The notes under the pieces: model-generated
Seen by the model: only the letters and a program-made list of their open reading frames with translations
Database searches by the model: none
Told to the model about the DNA's origin: nothing
Translations under genes and position numbers: made by a program
In this document: piece after piece, positions 33,508-52,464 of the stretch
Layout: each line of letters starts with the position of its first letter
Position numbering within the stretch: position 1 is the stretch's first letter
NCBI GenBank assembly: GCA_027337125.1
Contig: GCA_027337125.1_3057.1
Source: a phage
Direction: 5' to 3' (one strand)
Length of the DNA: 64,000 nucleotides

Positions 33508-33538
33508 GTTTACAGTAGGGTAGTAGTGTGATACTATT
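33508..33538 (+). promoter_or_regulatory. T4-type early promoter
   Basis: tttcacaaagttgtttaca ... gtgatactat. Confidence 0.5.
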
Positions 33539-33565
33539 ACCCTATCAACTACTGAGGAGAATAAA

Positions 33566-33751
33566 ATGAAACGTTGTGAATTAATTCGAAATGTTGCTAT
33601 TGCAATTTCTGCTTCCGCTTTTAGTTTTTCAATGTTTGCTGGATTTATATGCGGATTATTGACTACAGCAGAAAATGTTTTTTCACTTGTAGTAGCATTT
33701 TTAATTGGTTTAATCGCTATTGTTATGGATAAAATTTCTAAAGGTGAATAA
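33566..33751 (+). CDS. Small hydrophobic membrane protein (hypothetical)
   Basis: 61 aa, two predicted TM segments, GAGG RBS. Confidence 0.6.
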   Translation: MKRCELIRNVAIAISASAFSFSMFAGFICGLLTTAENVFSLVVAFLIGLIAIVMDKISKGE

Positions 33752-36244: not shown

Positions 36245-36376
36245 GTATCTAGGCCTTTCTGGACCTCTCTAGGCATCATTTAGTTTCTACCCTTTATAAT
36301 ATATTATCTTATCTTTTAATTGTCCCTCCCTGCCCTAGAATTCCCTAAAACTTTTTAAAAATTTTTTCACAAAACT

Positions 36377-36406
36377 ATTTACATCCCTGTTCTTCCATGG
36401 TACTAT
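36377..36406 (+). promoter_or_regulatory. T4-type early promoter with conserved ggtactatacaactatcaa cassette
   Basis: -35 atttac, 18-nt spacer, -10 tactat; the track ATG at 36397 lies inside this promoter so the real start is taken at 36451. Confidence 0.55.
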
Positions 36407-36450
36407 ACAACTATCAACTACTGATACAGAAAAACAACTTGGATAATAAA

Positions 36451-36714
36451 ATGGATAATTACGGCGAACTGTTCAACTTCTTTATGAAATGTGTTTCAGA
36501 AGATTTCGGTCGTACGGTGAATGATATTAAAGTTATCGGTCCTGACCATCCGATGTTTGAAACTTACGCAGTAATGGGTAATGAAGATGGTCAGTGGTAT
36601 ACTGTAAAGGTTGTGATTAACATGTTTACTGCTGAAGGTTATGTTAAACTGTCTTCTAAAGTTTACCACGATAACGACGAAATCGCAGAAGAATATTTCA
36701 ATAATATGAAATAA
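36451..36714 (+). CDS. Hypothetical protein (e.8-like by position)
   Basis: 87 aa from the first ATG downstream of the promoter, RBS ggataa. Confidence 0.65.
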   Translation: MDNYGELFNFFMKCVSEDFGRTVNDIKVIGPDHPMFETYAVMGNEDGQWYTVKVVINMFTAEGYVKLSSKVYHDNDEIAEEYFNNMK

Positions 36715-36782
36715 ATGTGTACAAACACCAAGGACGGTGTTATTATAGATTTATCAAAACAATCACAGAAGCGGAGAAATAA

Positions 36783-36959
36783 ATGACTACTTTAACTATT
36801 TGGTTTGACGAAAATGAAGAAACATACTGCGTGAACATTGATGAAAGTCCAATGCCTGACTTTGAATCTTCAGATAAGAAGTCGGTTATATCTTGGGCTG
36901 AAGGTTATAAAGCAGCAAAAGGCGATGTTAAAATAGTTTATAAACTCTTTGAAATATAA
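36783..36959 (+). CDS. Small hypothetical protein (58 aa)
   Basis: ATG preceded by GGAG RBS; MTTLTIWFDENEETYCVNIDESPMPDFESSDKK...; below the track size cut-off. Confidence 0.5.
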   Translation: MTTLTIWFDENEETYCVNIDESPMPDFESSDKKSVISWAEGYKAAKGDVKIVYKLFEI

Positions 36960-37002
36960 TATTCTCACGGATTTTAAATCTTAATCAACCTAAGGAAATA
37001 CT

Positions 37003-37596
37003 ATGAACACACTGAAGAAAATTGTTGAGTTTATTCGCACTAAACTTGGTTCTGCTATGGCTAAAAATCTATCTGTTGAAGAACAGTATACTGCTGCAGC
37101 AGCAAAACTACTTGATAAAATTAAAGATCTAAAAACTGCTTCTGTTAAATCTATTAATGAAGAAAAACGTATTCGTGAACTTGTTATCGAAAAGAATCGA
37201 CAGGCCGAATCAAAAGAGCGTGAAATTCGTAAACTTCTTTCCGAAGGTCAAGATGTAACAATGCATGCTAAACTCGGTTTGCTATATCGTCGAACAGCTG
37301 AACAGTTGACTACTAAAGCTGATGGTTATGCTGAAATGCGAATTGAAATCGCCAAGAAAGTAGTTGAGTTAGATGATGCTCGCCAAGAACTTGCAGTTAA
37401 ATTGGAATATATCCGTGAAACTCGTGCAGCAAATGCCCTTGGAATTAGTACTGCCGATGATGTAGTTGAAATTGCAGCACTGACTAAGGTTGATATTGAA
37501 GATACTCTTGCTCGAGTTGAAACCTTTAATGGCAATATTTCTGGGGTTGAAACCACCTCTGCTGATGTTCAGGAATACATTAATTCTCTGAAATAA
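37003..37596 (+). CDS. Coiled-coil protein with PspA/IM30-like features
   Basis: 197 aa, almost entirely predicted helix with heptad pattern and a TLARVE segment resembling PspA TLARMK; assignment is tentative. Confidence 0.7.
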
Positions 37597-37601
37597 TGAT
37601 A

Positions 37602-37617
37602 AGGGGCTTCGGCCCCT
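37602..37617 (+). terminator. GC hairpin (aggggc-ttcg-gcccct) after the coiled-coil gene
   Basis: UUCG-tetraloop hairpin; weak U-tract, so possibly an RNA stabiliser. Confidence 0.4.
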
Positions 37618-37637
37618 ATTACTTGGAGTAAATAGGA

Positions 37638-38246
37638 ATGAGAATGCAAAATGATTTCAATTCAATGTTTGAAGAGTTCCAAAGACAGGTTGATGTTCCA
37701 GACCAATTACTGAATGCTCTTAAACGCATGGCAGAAGGACGTAATTACTATTGGGGGTCTTCATATGAAACTGACGAAAGTCTTTCTGGAAGATTTTATA
37801 GAGGTAAAAAGTCTTTAATACGTCCTGGAATACTTATTAACAGTATTGAATCAATTCATTCATTGACATGTGATTTTGATGTTGAATTTACTGATTTCAT
37901 TTCTCCTGAATGGACAGTTTGTTATTTAAACGACGATTATGATTATCTTGGCATTTATAGTTTAAGTGACGCATGGTTTAAGCGTAATTTACAAAAGTCA
38001 AATTTATTTTATATTGATACTACGGTAAAATTTCAAGGCAAGAAATATTTCTTTACTCTTATAGTTGACTCTGAAACAAAATATGAAAATAAGCGTATTC
38101 TTAGTAAAAAGAATATCTTGACTATTGTTGATGATCTTTTTGATAAATTCGTAGAAAATCCTAATTTTGAAAGCGATTTATTACTAGAAAAATTTGTTAA
38201 GGAATGTAGAGAATATGTCAAAGCCATCACTATACCTTCCAAGTAA
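37638..38246 (+). CDS. Hypothetical protein
   Basis: 202-aa ORF (alternative start at 37644). Confidence 0.65.
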   Translation: MRMQNDFNSMFEEFQRQVDVPDQLLNALKRMAEGRNYYWGSSYETDESLSGRFYRGKKSLIRPGILINSIESIHSLTCDFDVEFTDFISPEWTVCYLNDDYDYLGIYSLSDAWFKRNLQKSNLFYIDTTVKFQGKKYFFTLIVDSETKYENKRILSKKNILTIVDDLFDKFVENPNFESDLLLEKFVKECREYVKAITIPSK

Positions 38247-38607
38247 ACCTTTGAAGTATGAATTAAAGCGCCAGCTAATTTCTACTGATGTATTAATAGG
38301 TCCTGTTATACTCATATCATTTGTAATTCTATTGATTATTGGAGGTGTTTTAGATGTTATGACTGATATTGATTCTGGCGAAATACTTGTATTAATGCTA
38401 ATTCTTCCATTAATAGTTCCATTTTTATTAGTACCTGTAAATTGGGTAGGATACTGGTATCAAGGAAGGCATTATCGTAAACGCGTACGTGATTGGAAAG
38501 CACAGTGTAAAAAGATTAAAAAGGAATATCAGCTTAAACTTGCTGCGTATGAATTTGATGAAATTATGAAATTTGTTAAGGAATCACGATGCAAAAGCCA
38601 AAACTAA
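38215..38607 (+). CDS. Small membrane protein (two predicted TM helices)
   Basis: Start set at Met 8 of the track ORF (MSKPSLYLPSK); hydrophobic core ISTDVLIGPVILISFVILLIIGGVL...LMLILPLIVPFLLVPV, basic C-terminus. Confidence 0.6.
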   Translation: MSKPSLYLPSKPLKYELKRQLISTDVLIGPVILISFVILLIIGGVLDVMTDIDSGEILVLMLILPLIVPFLLVPVNWVGYWYQGRHYRKRVRDWKAQCKKIKKEYQLKLAAYEFDEIMKFVKESRCKSQN

Positions 38608-38951
38608 ATAAAGTCAAATATTCGCTTCCTGAGTCATTTTTAATTTTTGCTGTGGCGTTGGCTGCAGCTCTTGCGGGTAGTCTTTTTGGATTGTTAATTG
38701 ACTGTCTTATTTTAAACATCGATGGCACAGTAAATATAATAGAAGTTTGGAGTGAACTTCGCTATACTAAAATTATTTCATTATTTTCATTCTTTTGTAT
38801 CATTCTATATTTTCATTATGATAATTTTAAAATAAATTGGCAAAGAAAAAAGGATTACAAAATACAATTAAAAGAATATAATAGCTACATGTCTTATATT
38901 GAAAATGAATCAATGAAAGAGTTTGTGATTGATTGCAGGAAATTAAAATGA
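38589..38951 (+). CDS. Small membrane protein
   Basis: 120 aa; hydrophobic segments FLIFAVALAAALAGSLFGLLIDCLIL and IISLFSFFCIILYF. Confidence 0.6.
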   Translation: MQKPKLNKVKYSLPESFLIFAVALAAALAGSLFGLLIDCLILNIDGTVNIIEVWSELRYTKIISLFSFFCIILYFHYDNFKINWQRKKDYKIQLKEYNSYMSYIENESMKEFVIDCRKLK

Positions 38952-39388
38952 AAACATTATCAGCTGGTATTATCTTTATGACAGAAGATAAAGATTTATT
39001 TATGGGTCGGGTTACTGGTTCTCGTAAGCCTGGAATGATGGCACATCGCTGGGATATTCCAAAGGGCCGTGTAGAAAATTCTGATTTAAGCGCATTAGAT
39101 GCAGCACGAAGAGAATGCTTAGAAGAGACTGGTTTTAGCAATTATAATCCAGACCTTCTAGAAGACCTAGGTGTATTTAAATATTCTAGTAATAAAGACT
39201 TACAGTTATTTTATTATACGATTCCAGTAGAGCATGAGATGTTTAGAAATTGCCATTGCGAGTCTTATTTTGAAAATAAAGATGGTGTTATGATTCCAGA
39301 GATGGATGCTTTTGCTCTTATTCCTCGTACTCAGTGGCAATATGTGATGGGTCCTTCACTTTACCGAATAATGAACAGCCTCTTTTAA
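38933..39388 (+). CDS. nudE: Nudix hydrolase
   Basis: Nudix box GRVENSDLSALDAARRECLEETG; immediately upstream of lysozyme e as in T4; alternative start at 38948 (ATGA overlap with the upstream stop). Confidence 0.85.
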   Translation: MQEIKMKTLSAGIIFMTEDKDLFMGRVTGSRKPGMMAHRWDIPKGRVENSDLSALDAARRECLEETGFSNYNPDLLEDLGVFKYSSNKDLQLFYYTIPVEHEMFRNCHCESYFENKDGVMIPEMDAFALIPRTQWQYVMGPSLYRIMNSLF

Positions 39389-40308
<920 letters not shown>

Positions 40309-40310
40309 TA

Positions 40311-40331
40311 AGGCCTATACTTAGGCCTATT
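40311..40331 (+). terminator. Hairpin aggccta-tact-taggcct after the IPIII-like gene
   Basis: 7-bp perfect stem followed by attt; weak terminator. Confidence 0.35.
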
Positions 40332-40455
40332 TACATTCAAATAACATGGGAACAAGCTGGACCTCATGATTCTGTGAGGGATTCCCGCCAACCTGTAATA
40401 AGGTCGAGCCCAAGTGCGGTAATGGGTAAATACAGAAACGGACAATTCATGCGCC

Positions 40456-41028
40456 ATGGAATGGCCCAAATTTAGAGATAACAAAATGAAAACATTTTTA
40501 ACTGGTCCTTATCTATCCCTGATGAATGCTTTTACACACCATTCTGATGCTAGAGTAGAAGAAATTTGTAATAGTGGATTTTATGTACCTGATTCGCCAC
40601 ATTTATTTAAAGAATACTGCACACTTCGACTAGATGGTGGACGTCAATCCGGTAAATCAACTGCAGTAACTAATTTTGCCGCTAATTGGTTGTATGACGG
40701 TGGAACAGTTATTGTTCTTTCTAATACTTCAGCTTACGCTAAAATTTCTGCGGGCCACATTAAAAAAGAATTTTCACGCTATTCTAATGATGATATTCGA
40801 TTCCGTTTATTTACTGATTCTGTCCGTAGTTTTGTTGGTAATAGAGGTAGCAAGTTCAGAGGTTTATCGCTTTCGCGGATTTTGTATATAATCGATGAGC
40901 CTGTTAAATCTCCTGATATGGATAAAATTTATGATATTCATATTGAAACTGTGCAACACTGCTGCAATAGTAAATGTTGCATTGGTGGTATTACTCGTCC
41001 ACAGTTTTTCGTAATCGGAATGCAATGA
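40456..41028 (+). CDS. P-loop NTPase-like protein (hypothetical)
   Basis: Walker A GGRQSGKST and Walker B-like ILYIIDE; alternative start at 40486 (MKTFLTG). Confidence 0.65.
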   Translation: MEWPKFRDNKMKTFLTGPYLSLMNAFTHHSDARVEEICNSGFYVPDSPHLFKEYCTLRLDGGRQSGKSTAVTNFAANWLYDGGTVIVLSNTSAYAKISAGHIKKEFSRYSNDDIRFRLFTDSVRSFVGNRGSKFRGLSLSRILYIIDEPVKSPDMDKIYDIHIETVQHCCNSKCCIGGITRPQFFVIGMQ

Positions 41029-41354
41029 TGACAGACACACAGCTTTTCGAATATCTTTATTTTTCGCCAAAAACTATTAAAAATAAATTGGTGAATCATT
41101 TTGAAATTTTGGCAAATAACAACGTCTTGAGCGAATTTTATCCTAAGCAGTATAAACTACAAAAAGGTGTATTCAAAGGATGTAGAGTTTTGTGTACTGC
41201 TCCTAATGCACGGTTAATGAATAAAATTCCATATTTTACAATGGAATTTATTGATGGACCTTTTAAAGGACTAATTACCCAGAGTTTAATGGCATATGAT
41301 TCTGAGCCATTTTTAATTAAAGAACAATCTTGGATAAATTTATTTTCTAATTGA
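41025..41354 (+). CDS. Hypothetical protein
   Basis: 109 aa from ATGATG overlapping the upstream TGA. Confidence 0.55.
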
Positions 41355-41361
41355 GGTTTAT

Positions 41362-41724
41362 ATGAAAGCATATCAAATTCTTGAAGGCACGCACAAAGGT
41401 ACTATTTATTTTGAAGATGGTATTCAAGCACGAATTATCGTTTCTAAAACCTTTAAAGAGGACTCTTTTGTAGACCCAGAAATTTTCTATGGTTTGCATG
41501 CCCGTGAAATTGAAATTGAGCCACAGCCTACAGTTAAAATTGAAGGTGGTCAGCACCTGAACGTTAACGTTCTGCGTCGTGAAACTCTGGAAGATGCAGT
41601 TAAGCATCCGGAAAAATATCCGCAGCTGACCATCCGTGTCTCCGGTTATGCAGTTCGCTTTAACTCTCTGACTCCGGAACAGCAGCGCGACGTTATCGCT
41701 CGTACCTTTACCGAGAGTTTGTAA
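41362..41724 (+). CDS. Autonomous glycyl-radical cofactor (GrcA/YfiD-like spare part)
   Basis: C-terminal [26 protein letters not shown] carries the glycyl-radical signature; 120 aa. Confidence 0.85.
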
Positions 41725-41945
41725 TGGCAAAGATAATTATTGAAGGTTCTAAAGATGTGCTAAATGCTTTCGCCGAATGGTTTAGTAATTCAGGCGAACA
41801 GCAATTTAATGAAGCATGGAACATGGGTGATATTAGTGGAATTTATCCTACGACAGAAATTTCTGTTCAGGGATATGGCATTCATGAACCTATTCGTTTA
41901 GTTGAATATGATTTGGGTACTGGTGAGGAAGTAAAATATGATTGA
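41724..41945 (+). CDS. Hypothetical protein
   Basis: 73-aa ORF, overlapping start/stop with neighbours. Confidence 0.55.
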   Translation: MAKIIIEGSKDVLNAFAEWFSNSGEQQFNEAWNMGDISGIYPTTEISVQGYGIHEPIRLVEYDLGTGEEVKYD

Positions 41946-42204
41946 AGATATTAAGGGTTATAAGCCACATACTGACGATAAAATCAGTAAAGTGAATGCT
42001 ATTAAAGATGCTGAAGTTCGTTTAGGACTTATCTTTGACGCTTTATATGATGAATTCTGGGAAGCACTAGATAATTGTGAAGACTGTGAATTCGCGAAGA
42101 ATTATGCTGAAAGCCTCGATCAGTTAACTATTGCTAAAACGAAACTCAAAGAAGCCAGTATGTGGGCTTGTCGTGCTGTGTTCCAACCAGAGGAAAAATA
42201 TTAA
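41938..42204 (+). CDS. Hypothetical protein at the vs.4 position (candidate Acb2-type cyclic-nucleotide sponge)
   Basis: 88-aa acidic helical protein, second ORF upstream of regB; assignment is by synteny and size only. Confidence 0.5.
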
Positions 42205-42482
42205 TGGCTCAATTAAGCGCAGGGTTTGGTTATGAGTATTATACTGCCCCTCGTCGTGTATCTGTTGCTCCTAAGAAAATTCAAAGTCTTGATGACTTCC
42301 AGGAAGTAGTTCGTAAAGCTTTCCATGACTATGCGAGTTATCTTAAAGAAGATTCACAGGACTGTCTCGAAGAAGATGAAATTGCTTACTATGAGCAGCG
42401 TCTTGAACAGCTTAAAAACCTACATGAGGTTCGTGCAGAAGTTTCAAAGTCTATGAATAAATTGATTAGATTTAAAGAATAA
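42204..42482 (+). CDS. Hypothetical protein (vs.3 position)
   Basis: Start set at Met 15 of the track ORF ([13 protein letters not shown]), TAATG overlap, GAGG RBS. Confidence 0.55.
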
Positions 42483-42484
42483 CT

Positions 42485-42514
42485 GTTTACTTTTCCTCTT
42501 GACTGTGGTATAAT
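42485..42514 (+). promoter_or_regulatory. T4-type early promoter upstream of regB
   Basis: -35 gtttac, 18-nt spacer, -10 tataat; AGGAG RBS follows. Confidence 0.6.
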
Positions 42515-42541
42515 TTTTCTATCAGTTAAGAGGAGAATAAC

Positions 42542-43003
42542 ATGACTATCAACACAGAAGTTTTTATCCGTCGAAATAAGCTCCGTCGTCACTTTGAGTC
42601 GGAGTTTCGTCAAATTAACAATGAGATTCGTGAGGCATCAAAAGCAGCAGGGGTCTCATCGTTTCATCTAAAATATTCTCAACATCTTCTTGATCGTGCA
42701 ATTCAACGGGAGATTGATGAGACATATGTTTTTGAATTATTCCATAAAATAAAAGACCATGTTTTAGAAGTTAATGAATTCCTAAGTATGCCTCCGCGTC
42801 CTGACATTAATGAGGATTTTATTGATGGGGTTGAATATCGTCCTGGGCGTTTAGAAATCACCGATGGAAATCTTTGGCTTGGATTTACAGTTTGTAAACC
42901 TAACGAGAAGTTCAAAGACCCGTCACTTCAGTGCAGGATGGCAATTATCAACAGTCGTCGTTTACCGGGAAAGGCTTCTAAAGCAGTAATTAAAACTCAA
43001 TGA
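42542..43003 (+). CDS. regB: RegB endoribonuclease
   Basis: 153 aa, MTINTEVFIRRNKLRRHFESEFRQINNEIREASK..., same length as T4 RegB. Confidence 0.92.
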   Translation: MTINTEVFIRRNKLRRHFESEFRQINNEIREASKAAGVSSFHLKYSQHLLDRAIQREIDETYVFELFHKIKDHVLEVNEFLSMPPRPDINEDFIDGVEYRPGRLEITDGNLWLGFTVCKPNEKFKDPSLQCRMAIINSRRLPGKASKAVIKTQ

Positions 43004-43010
43004 GGTAAGC

Positions 43011-43556
43011 ATGAGAAAAGCACTACTCGCTGGTCTATTGGCCATTTCAATGATGGCACATAGCTCCGAGCATACTTTCAGTAATGTCCAACTCGATAAC
43101 ATGCGTTACGCGTATCAATTCGGGGAACAATTTTCTAAGGATGGAAAATATAAAACACACAAAAATATCCACAAGAGCGGATTAGGTCATATAATGGCTG
43201 CTATTTTATGGCAAGAAAGCTCTGCCGGAGTTAATTTAAAATCTAAACCAAAGCATCACGCTTATGGAATGTTCCAAAATTATTTGCCTACTATGCGAGC
43301 AAGAGTTAAGGAACTTGGTTATAATATGACCGATGCTGAAATAAAAAGAATGTTGAATAAACGATCCAATTCAGCTTCATGGGCGTACATTGAACTTTCT
43401 TATTGGTTAAATATACATAAGGGTGATATAAGAAAAGCAATATCCTCTTATAATTCGGGATGGAATGTTAAAGCAGGTTCTAAATATGCTTCTGAAGTCC
43501 TAGAAAAGGCTAATTACCTTAAAAATAATAAACTTTTGGAAATAGTAAATGACTAA
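43011..43556 (+). CDS. vs.1: Vs.1-like secreted protein (lysozyme-like/transglycosylase fold suspected)
   Basis: 181 aa with N-terminal signal peptide MRKALLAGLLAISMMAHS; position after regB. Confidence 0.75.
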   Translation: MRKALLAGLLAISMMAHSSEHTFSNVQLDNMRYAYQFGEQFSKDGKYKTHKNIHKSGLGHIMAAILWQESSAGVNLKSKPKHHAYGMFQNYLPTMRARVKELGYNMTDAEIKRMLNKRSNSASWAYIELSYWLNIHKGDIRKAISSYNSGWNVKAGSKYASEVLEKANYLKNNKLLEIVND

Positions 43557-43896
43557 AATTTTGGTTTTATGTATAGGATTAATTTCATTTTCTGCTTATG
43601 CGTCAGCAGATACATCATATACTGAAATTAGAGAGTATGTAAACCGTACTGCCGCGGATTATTGCGGGAAAAATAAAGCATGCCAAGCTGAATTTGCGCA
43701 GAAATTAATATATGCATATAAAGACGGAGAAAGAGATAAATCAAGCAGATACAAAAATGATACTTTATTAAAACGATATGCTAAAAAGTGGAATACCTTA
43801 GAATGTTCAGTTGCGGAGGAGAAAGATAAAGCCGCTTGTCATTCAATGGTTGACCGTTTGGTAGATTCTTATAATCGAGGATTGAGTACTAGATGA
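43549..43896 (+). CDS. Vs-like protein with signal peptide (by position)
   Basis: 115 aa, signal-peptide-like N-terminus, four Cys; naming by synteny only. Confidence 0.6.
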   Translation: MTKILVLCIGLISFSAYASADTSYTEIREYVNRTAADYCGKNKACQAEFAQKLIYAYKDGERDKSSRYKNDTLLKRYAKKWNTLECSVAEEKDKAACHSMVDRLVDSYNRGLSTR

Positions 43897-44372
43897 TTGT
43901 AAAATATATCAAGGGCGATATTGTCGCCCTATTTCTTCAAGGTAATATTATTGCGCATGGGTGCAACTGCTTTCATACTATGGGTTCAGGTGTAGCAGGT
44001 CAATTAGCAAGGGCCTATCCTAAAATTTTAGAAATAGATAAAACCACAACTGAATATGGTTCGCGTGAAAAACTTGGTGATATGTCTATTGTTTTTAAAC
44101 ATAATCCTACAGGATTTGGTATATGCTATAACCTGTATACACAATACGAACCAGGTCCTAATCTTGATTATGGTGCTTTAGTAAACTGCATGATAGAATT
44201 AAATCTACAGGCAGAAACCCTTTTGTTTAAACCAGTAATTTACATTCCACGCATAGGTTGTGGTATTGCTGGCGGTGATTGGGATAAGGTTTCTAAATTA
44301 ATCGACATGTTTACTCCTGATATTGATTTAATAGTGGTGGATTATGAAAGCACATTACCCGCATCCGTTTGA
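43893..44372 (+). CDS. Macro-domain protein (ADP-ribose binding/hydrolase fold)
   Basis: KGDIVALFLQGNIIAHGCNCFHTMGSGVAGQL and IPRIGCGIAGGDW match the macro-domain N-terminal Gly-rich and C-terminal G-x-G-x-x-G motifs (compare E. coli YmdB). Confidence 0.75.
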   Translation: MIVKYIKGDIVALFLQGNIIAHGCNCFHTMGSGVAGQLARAYPKILEIDKTTTEYGSREKLGDMSIVFKHNPTGFGICYNLYTQYEPGPNLDYGALVNCMIELNLQAETLLFKPVIYIPRIGCGIAGGDWDKVSKLIDMFTPDIDLIVVDYESTLPASV

Positions 44373-44556
44373 TCCTAAAAACAAAGCAGAAATTATTCGT
44401 CAATGGGAACGCATTTGCCGTACTAAATGCCCAATTAATAGTCCACATGATGTAGATAAAGACTATATTGGAACATTCGTTGAATATACCTTTATTGATA
44501 AGAAAGGTCGTAAACAGCATGTAGAAGAATATTGCTTAAAGGTTACATGGTTATGA
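44344..44556 (+). CDS. Hypothetical protein
   Basis: 70-aa ORF. Confidence 0.5.
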   Translation: MKAHYPHPFDPKNKAEIIRQWERICRTKCPINSPHDVDKDYIGTFVEYTFIDKKGRKQHVEEYCLKVTWL

Positions 44557-44738
44557 GTTTAAGTAAAGAACAGAAAGATAAATTGTTTGAGCTTATCCAT
44601 GAACTTCTAGATGAGCATACAGAAGCAAACACCTTTTATGATGAATACGGCCCGCTATCTCCCGAACAGCAGGAAGAATTTGCTGAACGGTTTGATAAGA
44701 AAGAAAATGAATTAATAGCTTATGTGAATACACTTTAA
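44532..44738 (+). CDS. Hypothetical acidic protein
   Basis: 68-aa ORF; probable start at 44553 (ATGA overlap). Confidence 0.5.
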   Translation: MLKGYMVMSLSKEQKDKLFELIHELLDEHTEANTFYDEYGPLSPEQQEEFAERFDKKENELIAYVNTL

Positions 44739-44747
44739 GAAGGTGAT

Positions 44748-45329
44748 ATGGCGAGTTTAATTTTTACTTATGCAGCAATGAATGCTGGAAAATCTGCTTC
44801 TCTTTTGACTGCTGCGCATAATTATAAAGAACGTGGAATGAGTGTATTAGTTCTTAAGCCTGCTATTGATATTCGCGATTCTGTCTGTGAAGTTGTTTCT
44901 CGCATTGGAATTAAACAGGAAGCGAATATTATTACAGATGATATGGATATTTTCGAGTTCTATAAATGGGCTGAAGCACAAAAAGATATTCATTGCGTAT
45001 TTGTAGATGAAGCTCAGTTTTTAAAAACTGAACAAGTACACCAATTAAGCCGGATTGTTGATACATATAATGTTCCTGTTATGGCTTATGGATTAAGAAC
45101 TGATTTCGCTGGAAAATTATTTGAAGGTTCTAAAGAACTTTTGGCGATTGCTGATAAACTTATTGAGCTTAAAGCGGTTTGTCACTGTGGTAAAAAAGCT
45201 ATTATGACCGCTCGATTAATGGAAGATGGAACCCCAGTTAAAGAAGGCGATCAAATTTGTATTGGTGATGAAATTTACGTATCTTTATGTAGAAAACATT
45301 GGAACGAATTAACTAAAAAGCTAGATTAG
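44748..45329 (+). CDS. tk: Thymidine kinase
   Basis: 193 aa; P-loop AAMNAGKSASLL, C-terminal zinc ribbon CHCGKK...CIGDE...C. Confidence 0.95.
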   Translation: MASLIFTYAAMNAGKSASLLTAAHNYKERGMSVLVLKPAIDIRDSVCEVVSRIGIKQEANIITDDMDIFEFYKWAEAQKDIHCVFVDEAQFLKTEQVHQLSRIVDTYNVPVMAYGLRTDFAGKLFEGSKELLAIADKLIELKAVCHCGKKAIMTARLMEDGTPVKEGDQICIGDEIYVSLCRKHWNELTKKLD

Positions 45330-45338
45330 CGCAAAAGT

Positions 45339-45346
45339 TATAAATA
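45339..45346 (+). promoter_or_regulatory. Late promoter TATAAATA upstream of the rI-region genes
   Basis: tataaata 26 nt upstream of the 45372 ATG. Confidence 0.4.
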
Positions 45347-45371
45347 GGTTTATCTAACTAAAGGGGTATAT

Positions 45372-45584
45372 ATGCTACAATTAACTGAAAAGCAACTTCG
45401 CAATCTTACTGTGCTTCAATTAGATGAAATTCGTAGAGAAGTTGGAAATGTTATTTCAGCTTTGCGTCGAGAAGTATCAATCAACCAATCTCCGGCAGAC
45501 TATACCAGATTGCGAAATTTTGAAAAATACCTTGATAAAGTTAAGGCCGTACATCGGCATAAAGTAAATACAGGACAAAAATGA
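45372..45584 (+). CDS. Hypothetical protein (rI.1 position)
   Basis: 70 aa, AAGGGG RBS. Confidence 0.6.
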
Positions 45585-45596
45585 TAGGAGGCCTTT

Positions 45597-45890
45597 ATGG
45601 CCTTAAAAGCAACGGCACTATTTGCCATGCTAGGATTGTCATTTGTTTTATCTCCATCTATTGAAGCGAATGTCAATCCTCATTTTGATAAATTTATGGA
45701 ATCTGGTATTAGGCATGTTTATACACTTTTTGAAAACAAAAGCGTAGAATCGTCTGAACAATTCTATAGTTTTATGAGAACGACCTATAAAAATGACCCG
45801 TGCTCTTCTGATTTTGAATGTATAGAACGAGGCGCGGAGATGGCACAATCATACGCTAGAATTATGAACATTAAATTGGAGACTGAATGA
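45597..45890 (+). CDS. rI: Lysis inhibition regulator RI (antiholin)
   Basis: 97 aa; MALKATALFAMLGLSFVLSPSIEANVNPHFDKFMESGIRHVY... with signal-anchor N-terminus. Confidence 0.9.
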   Translation: MALKATALFAMLGLSFVLSPSIEANVNPHFDKFMESGIRHVYTLFENKSVESSEQFYSFMRTTYKNDPCSSDFECIERGAEMAQSYARIMNIKLETE

Positions 45891-46273
45891 AATTCAGCGA
45901 CTTTTCACAAAGTGGAAAACCTTCGAAGGCAGATGAATACTTAGGTTTATTAATGGCTGCACAAGCTTATTTTCATTCTGCACATTTTGAAACTAAAAGT
46001 TATGCTAGACACAAAGCATACGATTTTATTTTTTCCGAGTTACCAGATTTGATTGACAAATTTGGTGAGCAGTATTTGGGGTATTCTGGTAGAAAATACA
46101 CTCCTTCAATTCCAGATGCTAGTAAACTTCCTACCGATACAATTAAAATGATTGATCACATACTAGACCAATCTAACAGCATTTATAAAGAAATGCCTCC
46201 AGCCATTCAAAGCACGATAGATGATATTACTGGAATGTTTTATCAAAGTAAATATCTTCTTTCCCTCGAATAA
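45887..46273 (+). CDS. Hypothetical protein (rI.-1 position)
   Basis: 128 aa, ATGA overlap with rI. Confidence 0.65.
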
Positions 46274-46277
46274 CATT

Positions 46278-46300
46278 AGTCTCCTTCGGGAGACTTTTTT
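46278..46300 (+). terminator. Intrinsic terminator (agtctcc-ttcg-ggagact + U6)
   Basis: Perfect hairpin then tttttt. Confidence 0.75.
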
Positions 46301-46310
46301 CATTTTACCA

Positions 46311-46340
46311 GTTTACTTTTCGTTTGAGCCGTGGTACTAT
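46311..46340 (+). promoter_or_regulatory. T4-type early promoter with conserved ggtactatacaactatcaa cassette
   Basis: -35 gtttac, 18-nt spacer, -10 tactat. Confidence 0.6.
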
Positions 46341-46368
46341 ACAACTATCAAATAAAGAGGAGAACATC

Positions 46369-46557
46369 ATGAAAATTGAAGCACTCAATCAAGAAGGAAA
46401 TATCTATGTCATCATTAATGGTGATTTTTTCGTCGACATGGATGAAGTCACTAGTGAAGAACTTGTAGAATTTCTTAAGAAACGCTATAATATGTGTGAT
46501 GAAGCTGCAACTCACATGGCGTGTGCAATATTCTCTCTTTCATATGTGGTGGAATAA
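46369..46557 (+). CDS. Small hypothetical protein
   Basis: 62 aa ([10 protein letters not shown]...) from the first ATG after the promoter, GAGGAG RBS. Confidence 0.6.
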
Positions 46558-46760
46558 TGATTAGTATCGAACAAGCGGATAAGATTAAAGAATTGGTGGC
46601 TTTAATTCGTAAAGCAGATGAGGAACTTAGTGACTTTGGTTGGTTTTCGTCAGGCATTGCAAATAAAGGTATTGATGAATTTGAAGCTAAAGTTGATAAT
46701 GCTATGGAAGCTTTAGATAGGTTTCTTGATGAAATTATCGATCACAATACGAGAGTTTAA
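46557..46760 (+). CDS. Small hypothetical protein
   Basis: 67 aa; TAATG overlap with the upstream ORF. Confidence 0.55.
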   Translation: MISIEQADKIKELVALIRKADEELSDFGWFSSGIANKGIDEFEAKVDNAMEALDRFLDEIIDHNTRV

Positions 46761-46762
46761 GT

Positions 46763-46957
46763 ATGCTGACACACGAACAGTTTGAAAAAATCATTAAATT
46801 AGCACGTGATGTTGAAATAGATTCATATCAATTAGCAGTTGAGCATTGCGAAGGATATTCATACGAAGGTATAGCAGCAGCTAAAAAGGATTTGGATAAA
46901 TCTAAAGCTAAGTTAGTTCAATATCTTGAAATGATTAGGTGGAATAATGAAAACTGA
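46763..46957 (+). CDS. Small hypothetical protein
   Basis: 64-aa ORF. Confidence 0.55.
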   Translation: MLTHEQFEKIIKLARDVEIDSYQLAVEHCEGYSYEGIAAAKKDLDKSKAKLVQYLEMIRWNNEN

Positions 46958-47120
46958 AAAGCAGATGTTTTTAATGAAGCTAATTGAAGAATATGCTAAT
47001 GCAGTTTCTGACTATGAGTATTCTTCTCGTGAAAGAGGTACAGCTTTCGCCAAAGAAGAAATGAAAATCATGGTTGATGCTCATACAAAGCTTCAAAATT
47101 TTATTGAAAACAACATTTAA
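46947..47120 (+). CDS. Small hypothetical protein (57 aa)
   Basis: ATG overlaps the upstream ORF end; MKTEKQMFLMKLIEEYANAVSDYEY...; below the track cut-off. Confidence 0.45.
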   Translation: MKTEKQMFLMKLIEEYANAVSDYEYSSRERGTAFAKEEMKIMVDAHTKLQNFIENNI

Positions 47121-47122
47121 CG

Positions 47123-47152
47123 GTTTACAAGTTGGCAAGGTTATGGTATAGT
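47123..47152 (+). promoter_or_regulatory. T4-type early promoter
   Basis: -35 gtttac, 18-nt spacer, -10 tatagt. Confidence 0.55.
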
Positions 47153-47287
47153 AATCTTGTCAACTGCCAAGGAGAAGAGAATGAAAGTTTTGTTTGTTGT
47201 GTATGTGATGATTCAATATAATTACCCAATGTTTACTTATAATCTAGTGAACAACATTATTGATATTATTCAAAGGAGTATGTAACT

Positions 47288-47611
47288 GTGAGTGAGTCGA
47301 AGAGAATCAATATGAAACGATTAGTACTAGAAGTTAGTTCACTTTTTGGTGAATTGGCTATAGAAAAAGTAAATAACATGTATCGTTTGACGCAAGAAGA
47401 CGATATGCTATATTTTACGCCTAGCGAAATTATTCATTTAACCCAAATTGAAAAACCTTACACTGATAAAATTGTAAGCATTAATGATGAGCATAAAATT
47501 CATTTTTATTCTTTATGCCCAGGATTTAATATTGAAAGCGAGTCAATATGCTTATCAATTAATAATTGGGATAATTTTATAGCTAAGATTAAATATTTTC
47601 TATTATTCTAA
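47288..47611 (+). CDS. Hypothetical protein
   Basis: 107-aa ORF; start is GTG (AGGAG 9-10 nt upstream) or the ATG at 47312. Confidence 0.5.
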   Translation: MSESKRINMKRLVLEVSSLFGELAIEKVNNMYRLTQEDDMLYFTPSEIIHLTQIEKPYTDKIVSINDEHKIHFYSLCPGFNIESESICLSINNWDNFIAKIKYFLLF

Positions 47612-47843
47612 TGAAAGAAAACATGGTTTAAAATGGTTTAAAAATTGCAATGCTATTATTACTAACGCTTGTAATCAAAATTATGAAACTGTTTTAAATG
47701 TATCAAAATGCTATGAAGAGGGAGATGTCTTAACTATTCGTCAATCGGTAAATGATGTTAATGCTGTTGTATTAAACAAAGAAGAAGCTGTTTTATTAAA
47801 GACTTATCTTGATTCTGTCATTCCAACTATGATTTCAAAGTGA
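47612..47843 (+). pseudogene. ~75-codon open frame without any start codon, following the 47288 ORF in a different frame (possible frameshifted remnant)
   Basis: Frame runs through 47843 (...VIPTMISK*) with no in-frame ATG/GTG/TTG near its 5' end. Confidence 0.25.
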
Positions 47844-47917
47844 GGAAATATGTTTATTTCAAGTGGAACAGACCTGTGTTATAAATGCAAAGCAAAATTA
47901 AATGAGACGAAGAACCA

Positions 47918-48697
47918 ATGAATTATACTAAAGTATATAATAATTTAATTAAGAAAGGAAAACTCAGAAAATTAGATAAATCTAAATTAAATTTTTATAC
48001 GGAAAAGCATCATATTATTCCATCTTGTATTGGTGGTAATGATGATTCTGATAATCTAGTTTTATTAACAGCTAGAGAGCATTTTATAGCCCATTGGCTT
48101 TTAGCTAAAATTCATTATAATTCGCCTGGATTAATTTATGCATGGTGGTCATTTTATAATTTTGGAGAAGATTCTTTAGGAAGAAATCTCAAATTAACTT
48201 CAAGAGGATATCAGTTAGTTAGAGAAAAATTTTCAAAAATACATTCTAATACAATGAAAGAAATGTGGAAGTCTAATGAATACAGAGAAAAACGTTCGAT
48301 AACATTAAGTCTTCCTGAAATAAGGGCTAAAATTTCAGAATCCCAGTTAGAAGCACAAAACAAACCGGAAGTTAAAGAAAAAATATCTAAAGGGGTGAAA
48401 GCTGCTTTTAAACGACCGGGAGTTAAAGAAAAACACTCTGCTGCAGTCAAAAAATCTTTGAATAATTTTGAAACTAAAAAGAAACAATCAAATTCATCTA
48501 AAATTAGACAAAGAACTGGTAAACATTGGCAAGACTATGACTTACTTTATAAGTTATGGATTAAATTAAATAGACCTAAACGCGGGTCATTCGGAACTTA
48601 TATAAGTAAATTAGGATATCCAAAATCTAATTATCATCGATTGATTGTACAATTTAATGAAGATTATGAAAGGTCTAATAATGAAAACTGTAGTTAA
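47918..48697 (+). CDS. mobD: Mob-family HNH homing endonuclease
   Basis: MNYTKVYNNL...EKHHIIPSCIGGNDDSDNLVLLTAREHFIAHWLL plus repeated KPEVKEK modules; located between the rI block and the nrdC.x block as T4 mobD is. Confidence 0.85.
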   Translation: MNYTKVYNNLIKKGKLRKLDKSKLNFYTEKHHIIPSCIGGNDDSDNLVLLTAREHFIAHWLLAKIHYNSPGLIYAWWSFYNFGEDSLGRNLKLTSRGYQLVREKFSKIHSNTMKEMWKSNEYREKRSITLSLPEIRAKISESQLEAQNKPEVKEKISKGVKAAFKRPGVKEKHSAAVKKSLNNFETKKKQSNSSKIRQRTGKHWQDYDLLYKLWIKLNRPKRGSFGTYISKLGYPKSNYHRLIVQFNEDYERSNNENCS

Positions 48698-49691
48698 GTC
48701 TTATTTTGGTAGTCATCTTTATGGAACTTCTACCCCAGAATCTGATGTAGATTTTAAAGAAATCTTTGTTCCTCCTGCTCGTGATATTCTTATCGGAAAT
48801 GTTAAAGAGCATATGAGTAAAAATACCAACAACACATCATCTAAAAACACTAAAGATGATATTGACCATGAACTATACAGTCTTAAATATTTCTTTAAAT
48901 TAGCAGCAGATGCTGAAACTGTAGCATTGGATATGCTCCATACTCCACCTGAGTTAGTGGTTAAATCTGATTTGCCTGATGTATGGAAGTTTATTCAAGA
49001 CAATCGTTCTCGTTTTTATACGACTAACATGAAATCCTATTTAGGATATGTTCGCAAGCAAGCTTCTAAATACGGCGTCAAGGGTTCTCGTTTGGCCGCA
49101 TTACGTGATGTATTGAAAGTAGTTAATCAAATCCCTGATCAGTGGGTTGATTATCAAGAAGACGGTTCTATTAAGCAGCGTCGTACTAAAGTTGAAGATA
49201 TTAAGCATCGTCTTCCAGAGAACGAATTCTGTGAATGGGTGTTCCATAATCATGAGAAAACAGGCCCACAAACGTTCTATACAGTGTTGGGTCGTAAATA
49301 TCAGACAACGCTTTCTCTTATTGAGCTTAAGCAGTCACTGAACAAATTAGATGCTGAATACGGCGAACGCGCTCGTAAGGCTGAAGCGAATGAAGGTATT
49401 GACTGGAAAGCTCTGAGTCATGCTTGTCGTGGTGGACTTCAATTATTGGAAATTTACAAAACTGGTGACTTAGTTTATCCACTTCAAGACGCTCCATTTA
49501 TTCTCGACGTGAAGCTGGGTAAACACCCATTTAAAACTGTTCAAGAGTTTTTGGAAGATGTGGTCGATCAAGTAGAAGCAGCATCCATTGAAGCTTCTAA
49601 GAATGGTATGCAGCAAAAAGTAGACATGAGTTTCTGGGATGACTTCCTTGAAAGGGTGTATCTCGAAAACCACCGAAGTTATTATAAATGA
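48681..49691 (+). CDS. Nucleotidyltransferase-fold protein (pol-beta-like NTase motif)
   Basis: Start set at Met 13 of the track ORF; N-terminal GSHLYGTSTPESDVDF fits the G[SG]-x(9-13)-D-h-[DE] NTase signature; 336 aa. Confidence 0.7.
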   Translation: MKTVVKSYFGSHLYGTSTPESDVDFKEIFVPPARDILIGNVKEHMSKNTNNTSSKNTKDDIDHELYSLKYFFKLAADAETVALDMLHTPPELVVKSDLPDVWKFIQDNRSRFYTTNMKSYLGYVRKQASKYGVKGSRLAALRDVLKVVNQIPDQWVDYQEDGSIKQRRTKVEDIKHRLPENEFCEWVFHNHEKTGPQTFYTVLGRKYQTTLSLIELKQSLNKLDAEYGERARKAEANEGIDWKALSHACRGGLQLLEIYKTGDLVYPLQDAPFILDVKLGKHPFKTVQEFLEDVVDQVEAASIEASKNGMQQKVDMSFWDDFLERVYLENHRSYYK

Positions 49692-49693
49692 TA

Positions 49694-49718
49694 GGGAGCC
49701 TTCGGGCTCCCTTTTTTT
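49694..49718 (+). terminator. Strong intrinsic terminator (gggagcc-ttcg-ggctccc + U7)
   Basis: Perfect 7-bp GC stem, UUCG loop, ttttttt. Confidence 0.8.
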
Positions 49719-49742
49719 ATTTCAAAATTTTTTCATAAAACA

Positions 49743-49772
49743 GTTTACAAACATAAAGCTTTATGGTACTAT
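49743..49772 (+). promoter_or_regulatory. T4-type early promoter with conserved ggtactatacaactatcaa cassette
   Basis: -35 gtttac, 18-nt spacer, -10 tactat; the track ORF start at 49639 would read through terminator and promoter, so the start is taken at 49807. Confidence 0.6.
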
Positions 49773-49806
49773 ACAACTATCAACTGATACGGATTTGGAG
49801 AACAAA

Positions 49807-50775
49807 ATGAAAACTGTAACTATCAATAAGGGTATCTACTTCGGTAAAGAAATCTCTGGAACTTTTGAGCTCTTAGGCGAATGGTTCCCAGATAATGCTC
49901 CGGTAGATGCACAAGGAGATGGTAAAGTTTTTGTTGAAATTGACGGTAAACGTCGCGGTGTTTGGGTTTACAAATCAGACATTTCATATGATGGTGTAAA
50001 AGTTGAAGAAGTTAAAGAATCATATGAAGATATGAAAACCCGCATTAATAAAAGATTTAATGTTATGGGAATGATGACGAATGGTATTATTAACGGAAAT
50101 ATTCGTTCATTAATTATCTCTGGTGCGGCGGGTATTGGTAAAACGTATTCTTTAGATAAAGCTTTAAATAAAGCAAATGATATTGGATACATTGAGTATA
50201 AAAGCATTAACGGTAAAATCTCTGGTATCGGTCTTTATGAACAGCTTTGGAATAATCGTGAAGAGAATTCTGTCCTTTTGATTGATGATGTGGATGTTTT
50301 CTCTGATATGGACATTCTTAATCTTCTAAAAGCTGCTCTGGACACTGGAGAGACCCGTAAAGTCTGCTGGAGCACTGCATCTTCTTACTTAGAAGAAAAA
50401 GGCATTGAGCGTGAGTTTGAATTTAAAGGAACGATTGTTTTTATCACAAACGTTGATATTGACCACGAATTAGACCGTGGTACTAAACTTGCTCCACATT
50501 TACAAGCATTAGTGTCCCGCTCAGTTTATTTAGATTTGGGTGTTCACACTAATGAAGAAATTATGGTCAGGGTTGAAGATGTTATTCTTTCAACTGACAT
50601 GATGCAAAAGCGCGGTCTTTCTGATGAAGAAACTTATAAAGCATTATCATGGATGAAAGTCAATGTTAATCGTTTACGCAATGTTTCACTGCGTACTGCA
50701 CTTTATCTTGCTGACTTTATTATGACCGACAAAAACGGTTGGGAAGAAATCGCTGAAACGGTATTGTTAAAATGA
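49807..50775 (+). CDS. AAA+ ATPase (hypothetical function)
   Basis: Walker A GAAGIGKT, Walker B LLIDDVD, sensor-1-like FITNVD; 322 aa from the first ATG after the promoter. Confidence 0.8.
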   Translation: MKTVTINKGIYFGKEISGTFELLGEWFPDNAPVDAQGDGKVFVEIDGKRRGVWVYKSDISYDGVKVEEVKESYEDMKTRINKRFNVMGMMTNGIINGNIRSLIISGAAGIGKTYSLDKALNKANDIGYIEYKSINGKISGIGLYEQLWNNREENSVLLIDDVDVFSDMDILNLLKAALDTGETRKVCWSTASSYLEEKGIEREFEFKGTIVFITNVDIDHELDRGTKLAPHLQALVSRSVYLDLGVHTNEEIMVRVEDVILSTDMMQKRGLSDEETYKALSWMKVNVNRLRNVSLRTALYLADFIMTDKNGWEEIAETVLLK

Positions 50776-51491
50776 AAAAATATTTTACTATCTATAAAAC
50801 TGAAATATTAAATTTAAAGACTGGCATTAAGAAATATTATTATGGTCGACATATAACTAATAATATCAATGATTCGTATGTTGGTAGTGGAAATTATATA
50901 GAACGCGTAAAAGTGTCAAATGACCATATATTATCAAAAACTGTTTTAGAAGTTTTTGATAATTATGATAAAATGGTACAATCTGAAATATTATATATCA
51001 TGGCAGGCAAATTAAAATATGGTAAAAACTGTGTTAATCTGTCGTATGGGGGTGAAGGAGGAAAAGTTGCGGATGAAACTAGGATAAAATGTAAAAAGCA
51101 TTCCATAAATTTATGGAAAAATCCTAATCATATACAGCATATGAAGAAAAAGATGAAAGAGGTCACATCTACACCAGAAGCTAAATTAAACACTTCAATA
51201 AAAACTTCACAACGATATAAGGACCCAGTTTTTGTTAGAAAAGTTAGTAATATTATTAAAAAGGCACTAAGCAATCCTACGGTAAAAGAAAAGCATATTA
51301 ATGGAATTAAAGCTGCAAAGCGTTCTCATTTAACTATATGGCAGTATGAAGATGAATTATTCGAGCTTTGGAAAGAAACTAAATATGGATGGAGAAAATT
51401 TACAAAGGAAGCTATAAAACACGGGTATCCAAATGAACCGTATCGTAGTATGGTATCAACTTTTCAGAAAAGACATTTAGAAGAATCGTAA
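50772..51491 (+). CDS. Seg-like GIY-YIG homing endonuclease (free-standing)
   Basis: YFTIYKTEILNLKTGIKKYYYG (GIY-YIG-like), YVGSG, LSYGGEGG; resembles the segB product in this window; basic C-terminal half. Confidence 0.78.
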   Translation: MKKYFTIYKTEILNLKTGIKKYYYGRHITNNINDSYVGSGNYIERVKVSNDHILSKTVLEVFDNYDKMVQSEILYIMAGKLKYGKNCVNLSYGGEGGKVADETRIKCKKHSINLWKNPNHIQHMKKKMKEVTSTPEAKLNTSIKTSQRYKDPVFVRKVSNIIKKALSNPTVKEKHINGIKAAKRSHLTIWQYEDELFELWKETKYGWRKFTKEAIKHGYPNEPYRSMVSTFQKRHLEES

Positions 51492-51573
51492 GACAAAAAG
51501 GCAGTTCAGAAATAGATTATATGGACTGCCATCAAAAAGATGACTAGAATTAAACTGGTAAATGGAGGTAGTG

Positions 51574-51876
51574 ATGTTATACTCAAAGGCTCGTGAAATT
51601 TACGAAACTAAAATTAAAGAAGCAGTATTTCAGTTCGCAACAACAATGCGATGGACAAATGATTGGGAATATTCAAAAAATCATAAGAAGCCCCTGGTGA
51701 CAAGAAAGACTCATATGTTAGTGTTAATAGACCGTGAGCAGATTAAAGCCCGAGAAGCCCTCCAGAATCATAAAAAGGCTGCCTTTGAATGGTTTATGGA
51801 TAACACTGCTCCTGAGACTAAGAAAGCAGTGAGCGCTTGGTTCAGTGGAAAAAATTGTGAAAGAAGTTTCTTTTAG
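51574..51876 (+). CDS. Hypothetical protein
   Basis: Start set at Met 5 of the track ORF (GGAGG RBS 6 nt upstream); 100 aa. Confidence 0.6.
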   Translation: MLYSKAREIYETKIKEAVFQFATTMRWTNDWEYSKNHKKPLVTRKTHMLVLIDREQIKAREALQNHKKAAFEWFMDNTAPETKKAVSAWFSGKNCERSFF

Positions 51877-51878
51877 TG

Positions 51879-51908
51879 GTTTACAAGACTGTTCCTCTGT
51901 GGTACTAT
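51879..51908 (+). promoter_or_regulatory. T4-type early promoter with conserved ggtactatacaactatcaa cassette
   Basis: -35 gtttac, 18-nt spacer, -10 tactat. Confidence 0.6.
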
Positions 51909-51936
51909 ACAACTATCAACTACGGAGGAACACAAA

Positions 51937-52464
51937 ATGAACGCTAAAGATATTTTCAACCTGGTAAATTACAACGACGGTAAATTTAAATCTGAAGCAC
52001 AAAGCAAGTTCTTTAATGACATCTCAATCGGAGGTGAAATCACGGTTGATGGAGGACAAATTTACAAATCCCGTTGGAATTGGATCGTTATTATTGATGA
52101 GATTGGTATTATAGAAATTTATAAGAATACGAATAAAAATCGTACATTACACTGGTCTCGTGATACTAACGAACAGTACAAAAAGGATAAAGCATCTAAA
52201 TTATCTCGTGTAACTCAAGAAGATATTGAGTTCATCAAGAAAGATATTTTGATGTATGATAACTTAATTGCTGAAGAGCAAGCTGTTATTGATAAATTTG
52301 ATGAGATTAAAGCTTCTCGTGAAATTCCTGATTTTATGAAAGAATCAGTAAATGAACGATACACTCTCATTTCAGAGCGTATTGAAACTTACAAAAAGCA
52401 AAGAGCTGAACGCCAAAATACTCTTCGGAAGTTTGAAGAACGGTTAAAGACGGTACTCGCATAA
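51937..52464 (+). CDS. Hypothetical protein
   Basis: 175 aa, GGAGG RBS, helical C-terminal half. Confidence 0.7.
   Translation: MNAKDIFNLVNYNDGKFKSEAQSKFFNDISIGGEITVDGGQIYKSRWNWIVIIDEIGIIEIYKNTNKNRTLHWSRDTNEQYKKDKASKLSRVTQEDIEFIKKDILMYDNLIAEEQAVIDKFDEIKASREIPDFMKESVNERYTLISERIETYKKQRAERQNTLRKFEERLKTVLA

Follow-up and report, generated by a model that had tools for sequence, protein, structure and literature searches.

Early promoters (Pe) of bacteriophage T4 are of the 'UP/-35/TGn/-10' type with further conserved regions (PMC2988021), and carry GTTTAC at positions -36 to -31 (PMC1524935). The PeSL hypothesis holds that cassettes made of a terminator stem-loop and an early promoter recombine in the hyperplastic regions of T4-type genomes (Arbiol 2010, PMC2839356). 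In phages RB49 and phi1, inverse PCR recovered PeSL mini-circles whose crossovers mapped to the interval from the -10 to the ATG (PMC2839356), and a later study applied the idea to T4/PST, where the consensus is TTTACW-N17-TAYWAT (Comeau 2014, PMC4122927). The phage DNA analyzed here (the window; 64,000 nt of contig GCA_027337125.1_3057.1, assembly GCA_027337125.1) contained four copies of an identical block spanning the -10 and start region of putative early promoters, hereafter P36.4, P46.3, P49.7 and P51.9. At the sequence level these sites agree in every respect with the T4 early-promoter class, to which they are assigned.

The window was attributed, from its sequence, to a T4-like phage of the genus Tequatrovirus. 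It had 95–96% identity to many Tequatrovirus genomes across the nrdC-tk-regB-e-tRNA-ipI early region, and its + strand corresponded to the early (minus) strand of T4. The 19-nt cassette that a sequence-only reading had reported at four sites was exact as GGTACTATACAACTATCAA at 36399-36417, 46333-46351, 49765-49783 and 51901-51919 on the + strand. No further copy was detected on either strand of the window with up to three mismatches allowed, and 100 dinucleotide shuffles yielded 0 matches. Since a T precedes all four 19-mers, the shared block is the 20-mer TGGTACTATACAACTATCAA, which spans -15 to about +5 and comprises TGn, the -10 TACTAT, the discriminator ACAACT and the first transcribed bases ATCAA. 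The promoter positions listed in that reading (36377, 46311, 49743 and 51879) are the first bases of the -35 hexamers. The GTTTAC said to be common to them was found at 46311, 49743 and 51879, and was replaced by ATTTAC at 36377; the 18-nt spacer is right if counted from GTTTAC, but becomes the canonical 17 nt if the hexamer is read as TTTACA/TTTACT. The extended -10 TGG-TACTAT stood 17 nt after TTTACa at 4/4 sites, and the 15-nt spacers between the -35 and the 20-mer were unrelated among them. An A/T-rich UP region (-40 to -60) was present at the four sites, clearest at P36.4 (ttttaaaaattttttcacaaaac) and P49.7 (tttcaaaattttttcataaaac), with aaaaaattgtgaaagaagtttcttttag at P51.9 and the terminator T-run plus cattttacc at P46.3. 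The ATGs lay 34–50 nt after the -10.

P36.4 (36330..36453, +) is the orthologue of the T4 70.7-kb promoter before e.8, and consists of an A/T-rich UP block with TTTTTTCACAAAAC, the -35 ATTTAC (36377-36382), a site-specific spacer, the 20-mer (36398-36417) with its -10 TACTAT at 36401-36406, a predicted +1 A at 36413, placed like the other starts by the usual 7-nt distance from the -10, a leader, and an ATG at 36451. P46.3 (46278..46371, +), orthologous to the T4 58.8-kb promoter before mobD.5, joins a terminator stem-loop with a T-run (46278-46295) to a -35 GTTTAC at 46311-46316, the 20-mer at 46332-46351, a -10 at 46335-46340, a predicted +1 at 46347 and an ATG at 46369; independent annotation in the record of phage fPS-2 places a terminator and a 'predicted early promoter' at the corresponding positions. 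The same arrangement was found at P49.7 (49693..49809, +), orthologue of the T4 55.4-kb promoter before nrdC.10, with a stem-loop at 49693-49712, GTTTAC at 49743-49748, the 20-mer at 49764-49783, a -10 at 49767-49772, a predicted +1 at 49779 and an ATG at 49807. P51.9 (51835..51939, +), orthologue of the T4 53.9-kb promoter before nrdC.8, had GTTTAC at 51879-51884, the 20-mer at 51900-51919, a -10 at 51903-51908, a predicted +1 at 51915 and an ATG at 51937, and no terminator stem-loop upstream.

In total, about 12–13 sites on the + strand between 31 and 64 kb displayed the full T4 early-promoter pattern (GTTTAC-like, 17/18 nt, TGnTAnnnT), each with a Shine-Dalgarno sequence (SD) and ATG 30–50 nt downstream. 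This architecture, together with positional orthology to T4, bore out the proposal that the four promoters head separate early transcription units. They resembled T4 early promoters in the A-rich UP, GTTTAC, TGn, the -10 TAnnnT and the conserved positions of the start region, and their orientation and gene contexts were the same. The differences, none of them substantial, were ATTTAC at P36.4, three block positions at P46.3, and a separate isolate, ~95% identical to deposited genomes.

In T4 the exact 20-mer occurred six times, always in early orientation (167.06, 163.65, 70.67, 55.36, 53.92 and 27.06 kb), with near copies at 146.85, 58.76 and 6.6 kb, and the motA promoter belonged to the exact-copy set. 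The window sites were collinear with their T4 orthologues, and the 20-mer was letter-identical to the T4 orthologue at P36.4, P49.7 and P51.9. The site-specific spacers agreed with those of the T4 orthologues and not among the window copies. In five Tequatrovirus relatives the 20-mer was unchanged at P49.7 and P51.9, while the neighboring spacers varied at 3–4 positions, and complete T4-like IMG/VR contigs bore 5–6 exact 20-mers at the same sites. P36.4 had the allele ATCAATATCAA in BF15 and in a Mosigvirus, as in the T4 6.6-kb paralogue. Positional orthology and the spacers shared with T4 imply that the copies are old and vertically inherited, and not newly spread in this genome. The perfect 20-mer of the window at P46.3 was matched by no other record; gene conversion was considered as its source and rejected, an intermediate allele being present in fPS-2.

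A position-independent frequency model built from 34 T4 early promoters, exact copies included, gave the exact 20-mer a probability of 1.2e-4, corresponding to 0.004 expected copies against 6 observed in T4; with the exact-copy family omitted the probability was 6e-8. On this model, the suggestion that the block is merely the early-promoter consensus was rejected. Nor was it present at equal identity at every early promoter, as a genus-wide consensus would be, but in a minority of them, namely 4 of the ~12–13 in the window and 6/34 in T4. The T4 early promoters fell into discrete -10/+1 groups, including TGGTACTAT-ACAACTATCAA, TGATACTAT-TACCCTATCAA, TGGTATAGT-AATCTTGTC, TGTTATAGT-AGTCTTACT and others. 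In T4 the focal block was linked to the upstream sequence CAYAAAACnGTTTAC (6/6 vs 3/28, p = 6e-5), and this linkage persisted despite unrelated spacers; in the window the upstream block lay at 36368 and 49734. Two upstream UP/-35 'haplotypes' could thus be told apart, CAYAAAACnGTTTAC accompanying the focal block and AAAGTTGTTTAC accompanying other -10 blocks. A Mosigvirus relative carried other blocks (TGTTATTATAGACCTATC...) at the orthologues of P49.7 and P51.9. Mosigvirus vB_VIPECOMC06 had a recurrent -10/+1 block of its own, TGTTAYTATAGACCTRTC, at 23813, 30853 and 32329, the P49.7 and P51.9 orthologues among them, so that block families look genus-specific. The exact-copy sites are therefore regarded, on these comparisons, as one discrete paralogous early-promoter subfamily, kept across Tequatrovirus.

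The layout of a PeSL cassette (terminator stem-loop, AT-rich region, early promoter, SD/ATG) is exactly that of P46.3 and P49.7, and the T4/PST consensus fits the focal sites. P51.9 departs from it in having no stem-loop and P36.4 in having its stem-loop (36213..36248, +; stem 36216-36239) ~140 bp upstream. The cassettes had been proposed as substrates for homologous recombination and borders of exchangeable modules. This was surveyed with 800-bp queries centered on each -10 against 50,697 phage records, and with chained alignments of 30–64 kb against five relatives (T4, Lv5cm, BF15, Kha5h and RB18). Mosigvirus MC06 was excluded from the breakpoint statistics because many 'edges' there were mere loss of nucleotide similarity. 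At P49.7, 480 of ~501 records were collinear. In EC.W1-1 and two IMG/VR genomes a two-ORF (open reading frame) module followed directly after the ...ACAACTATCAA of an intact P49.7, and it closed with a second promoter, of the TACCC subfamily, before nrdC.10. In Ozark a one-ORF module was joined at the -35 of P49.7. At P36.4, 440/736 records were collinear, and the partial alignments sampled broke off beyond the limits of the cassette, at 36202, 36301 and 36714.

The paralogous promoters of T4 were mosaic. The UP of the 163.6-kb site equaled that of the 146.9-kb site, whose spacer equaled that of the 55.4-kb site, and the leaders matched between 167.1 and 27.1 kb and between 70.7 and 6.6 kb. 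The T4 166.8-kb site had the TACCC block in T4 and the focal block in another genome, i.e., one locus can bear blocks of different subfamilies in different genomes, and chimeric cassettes existed that combined the e.8 spacer with the imm.1 leader. The mosaic segments and the positions of the junctions would be indirect evidence that cassettes recombine with each other during infection, which has been shown only for RB49/phi1.

The sequence-only reading had also described a second upstream block, and TTCACAAAGTTGTTTACA was indeed exact at three sites, 33131, 33497 and 62936 (one base beyond the 62935 first given), with a relative bearing three mismatches at 36366. The block AAAGTTGTTTAC of this second motif was paired with -10 blocks other than the focal one. 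The promoter P33.1 before ipI (33131..33204, +) has TTCACAAAGTTGTTTACA at 33131-33148 and the -10 block TGATACTAT; P33.5, downstream of ipI (33497..33568, +), has it at 33497-33514 with TGATACTATTACCCTATCAAC; and P63.0 (62936..63009, +), orthologue of the T4 41.7-kb promoter, has it at 62936-62953 with the -10 TGGTATTAT. P33.1 served as the positive control of the collinearity survey. Only 171/562 records were collinear there, the alignments ended at the ipI ATG in ~70%, and homology to relatives with other internal-protein genes resumed at the P33.5 -10 (33528). The internal-protein (ipI) locus of T-even phages is described as polymorphic (Repoila et al. 1994, as cited in PMC4122927). In the window it is flanked by the second motif, and in Lv5cm, BF15, RB18 and a Mosigvirus ipI is swapped for other internal-protein genes between conserved cassettes. 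The ipI-flanking promoters at 33131 and 33497 are a genuine exchange boundary, although one that concerns the second-motif family and not the 19-mer family. Module exchange at the cassette was a likeness to PeSL elements at P49.7 and the ipI promoters, whereas three of the four focal copies showed no indel association among ~500 genomes or in the five aligned relatives. PeSL-like evolutionary behavior was seen at one of the four focal sites and at the ipI pair.

These results are very probably explained by a T4-like Pe subfamily that was inherited and kept mainly by selection, with occasional exchange, and in which some cassettes became module joints. The four sites would be sigma-70 early promoters, used by the unmodified RNA polymerase of the host immediately upon infection and ordered as UP, -35 G/ATTTAC(a), 17-nt spacer, TGn plus TACTAT, a start ~7 nt further on, short leader, SD and ATG. 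Purifying selection on promoter function would be the main force keeping the block identical, since it was invariant at orthologous sites while the adjoining spacer and leader drifted. Paralogous promoters would also contribute by occasionally swapping cassette segments, the crossovers falling in the conserved UP/-35 and -10/+1 blocks. As these two blocks flank a site-specific spacer, the cassettes could serve as short homology patches for the insertion or swap of modules. For P49.7 and the ipI promoters, the junctions described above demonstrate that such exchange has taken place. The lack of exchange at P46.3 and P51.9 argues that the majority of copies act as stable promoters rather than as active borders of modules.

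Several observations weigh against this reading, most of them against its recombination part. At P46.3, 499/503 records were collinear, and so were 499/503 at P51.9 (95–99% identity band). Over 30–64 kb, the comparison with the five relatives gave 57 distinct edges of indels or replacements, of which 0 fell inside the focal cassettes. Edges were not enriched at promoter-bearing gene junctions (4/12 vs 19/56 others, p = 1), nor within cassette spans (4 vs 2.85 expected). An identity of 20 bp is short for homologous recombination, and the junctions at cassette edges could also come from illegitimate events, of which selection kept those that left promoters functional and genes undamaged. The allele series GG, AG, AA at +4/+5 of P46.3 points to two point changes and gives no evidence of conversion. 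A generic sigma-70 scan was uninformative (81 sites vs 80.4 in shuffled sequence), so that the promoter calls depend on the extended T4-specific pattern, and promoter activity and +1 positions are predictions from sequence and orthology. The claim that the cassettes are recombination substrates and module borders survived for P49.7, the ipI pair and the mosaic segments among paralogues. It failed for P46.3, P51.9 and P63.0 (505/506 records collinear at the last), where at least 99% of ~500 genomes were collinear.

The strongest competitor, which we consider possible but rather doubtful, is that function alone maintains the block. Every base would be needed for an optimal or tuned promoter (TGn, -10, discriminator and start contacts), recombination would have no role, and the junctions at cassettes would merely be the places where viable rearrangements survive. 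The invariance of the block between drifting flanks, the near-complete collinearity at P46.3, P51.9 and P63.0, the unenriched breakpoints and the P46.3 alleles, which suggest point mutation towards the family sequence, all agree with it. However, other strong T4 early promoters have quite different -10/+1 blocks, so that no single sequence is required, and blocks were swapped between subfamilies at one locus across genomes, with segments in mosaic. Function alone also sits poorly with insertion junctions exactly at block edges and with the sequenced PeSL mini-circles of RB49 and phi1, where the crossovers lay between the -10 and the ATG (PMC2839356).

Less probable still, and in our view unlikely, is that promoters combining CAYAAAACnGTTTAC with the 20-mer are a separately controlled set. 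In such a regulatory subclass the region -6 to +5, or the RNA 5' end AUCAACUAC..., would be read by a putative phage factor or by ADP-ribosylated polymerase, leading to differential stimulation or shut-off. A review describes as unknown both what determines stimulation by Alt and why early promoters are shut off, and notes that promoters with identical -35/TGn/-10 respond differently to Alt (PMC2988021). Conservation here reaches past the classical contacts at -35 and -10, the upstream block stays linked to the downstream one although the spacers between them are unrelated, and the motA promoter is in the set. Nevertheless, a Mosigvirus with the same host has other blocks in its orthologous promoters, positions +4/+5 of P46.3 are free to vary, and common descent with exchange explains the linkage equally well. 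If true, it would bear on which early promoters Alt stimulates and on what shuts early promoters off. Chance repetition or a recent local duplication in this genome, for which the bare identity alone speaks, can in effect be ruled out by the 0 matches in shuffles, by spacers and flanks that differ between copies and match the T4 orthologues, and by the block at the same sites in T4 and IMG/VR genomes.

Returning to an inherited subfamily with occasional exchange, the promoter class has been published, as has the recombination idea, and the finding is therefore already known. The subfamily statistics and the large-sample negative for most copies are minor refinements. They amount to a quantified and modest check of the PeSL idea within the T4 genus, in which cassettes can be exchange joints (ipI, P49.7) while most subfamily copies were stable over hundreds of genomes and breakpoints were no commoner at promoters than at other gene junctions. 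Current understanding is unchanged by this, and just two leads would merit a specialist's time, the structure of the subfamily and the hairpins that enclose the -10. No paper printing these sites with experimentally mapped starts was found in the open-access literature, and a literal sequence search of the literature returned no paper with a 13- or 15-mer of the block. Rfam models over the promoter sites detected no known RNA family, and only eight tRNAs (34.5–35.9 kb) passed the thresholds.

For annotation, the cassettes mark true gene starts and the heads of transcription units, and expose over-long ORFs. In three cases the longest ORF had been said to start wrongly inside the cassette. Two did, at 36397 (ATG) and 46324 (TTG), whereas the ORF at P49.7 begins at ATG 49639, upstream of the cassette, and runs through it, and P51.9 showed no artifact. 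A further such ORF start lay inside a non-focal promoter, at ATG 54890 within TATAATG.

Many T4-type early promoters had a spacer complementary to their own start, leader or SD, predicting a hairpin with the -10 in its loop. In the window this was observed at P42.5 before regB (42485-42545), at P51.9 (51879-51940), and at 33142-33190, 33508-33550 and 47123-47165; at P51.9 the complementary partners are the spacer GTTCCTCTG and the SD region CGGAGGAAC. In read-through RNA the SD was predicted to be fully paired at P42.5 and P51.9 (free energy -22.4 and -20.8 kcal/mol; z = -5.4), whereas predicted folding left it free in transcripts starting at P42.5 or P51.9 itself. For 32 T4 early promoters, pairing of the own spacer with the own downstream sequence gave -9.9 kcal/mol compared with -6.3 kcal/mol for mismatched pairs (permutation p = 1e-4), and ranked first in 9 of the 32. 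Spacer-leader hairpins would explain why spacers are conserved site by site, and might mean that translation is coupled to local promoter use. The T4 genes e, soc and I-TevI are controlled by hairpins around late promoters, which the early-promoter hairpins resemble. A 5' hairpin AUCA/UGAU in the focal leaders was also considered and was too weak (-0.6 kcal/mol).

The terminator stem-loop at 36213-36248 follows small stable RNAs and is single-copy in both the window and T4. Its 36-mer is the direct repeat flanking a 519-bp ORF insertion in RB18 and Kha5h; in this indel the mediating element is the stem-loop and not the promoter.

The gene content around the cassettes differed from that of T4. 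The genes denV, ipII, e.7, e.2, tk.1, nrdC.2 and nrdC.3 were absent from the window, the absence of denV and ipII (between e and vs.8 in T4) being established for the whole window with tblastn. The ORF at 39910-40308 matched only residues 78–192 of T4 IpIII, behind a different N-terminus, and over 39910-40348 the relatives were 0.9–1.3 kb longer, with a flanking 41-bp repeat (39968-40008); this suggests a deletion between the repeated 5' parts of internal-protein genes. Compared with T4, the window bore additional endonuclease-like ORFs of the mob/NUMOD type. A 219-aa ORF between genes 2 and 3 (30373-31032), absent from all six relatives compared, resembled the T4 MobD/MobC HNH homing endonucleases at its N-terminus (53% over 75 aa) and gave no Pfam match at 1e-3; the ORF probably encodes a homing endonuclease of the freestanding kind, located at a new site. 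An extra 239-aa ORF lay between nrdC.10 and nrdC.9 (50772-51491), where an equal-sized gene is annotated as 'DNA endonuclease' in Lv5cm and 'site-specific intron-like DNA endonuclease' in BF15. An ORF containing NUMOD3 was found between gene 49 and nrdD (58287-59108), a mob-like ORF replaced mobC (60913-61752), and the nrdD intron with I-TevII was absent from the window. At 36714-36986, a promoter GTGTAC...TGTTATTAT with its -10 at 36741 and, behind it, a 58-aa ORF without a Pfam match took the place of T4 e.7 and its downstream promoter, a replacement shared with Lv5cm and Kha5h; its left junction fell exactly at the 5' edge of the GTGTAC promoter.

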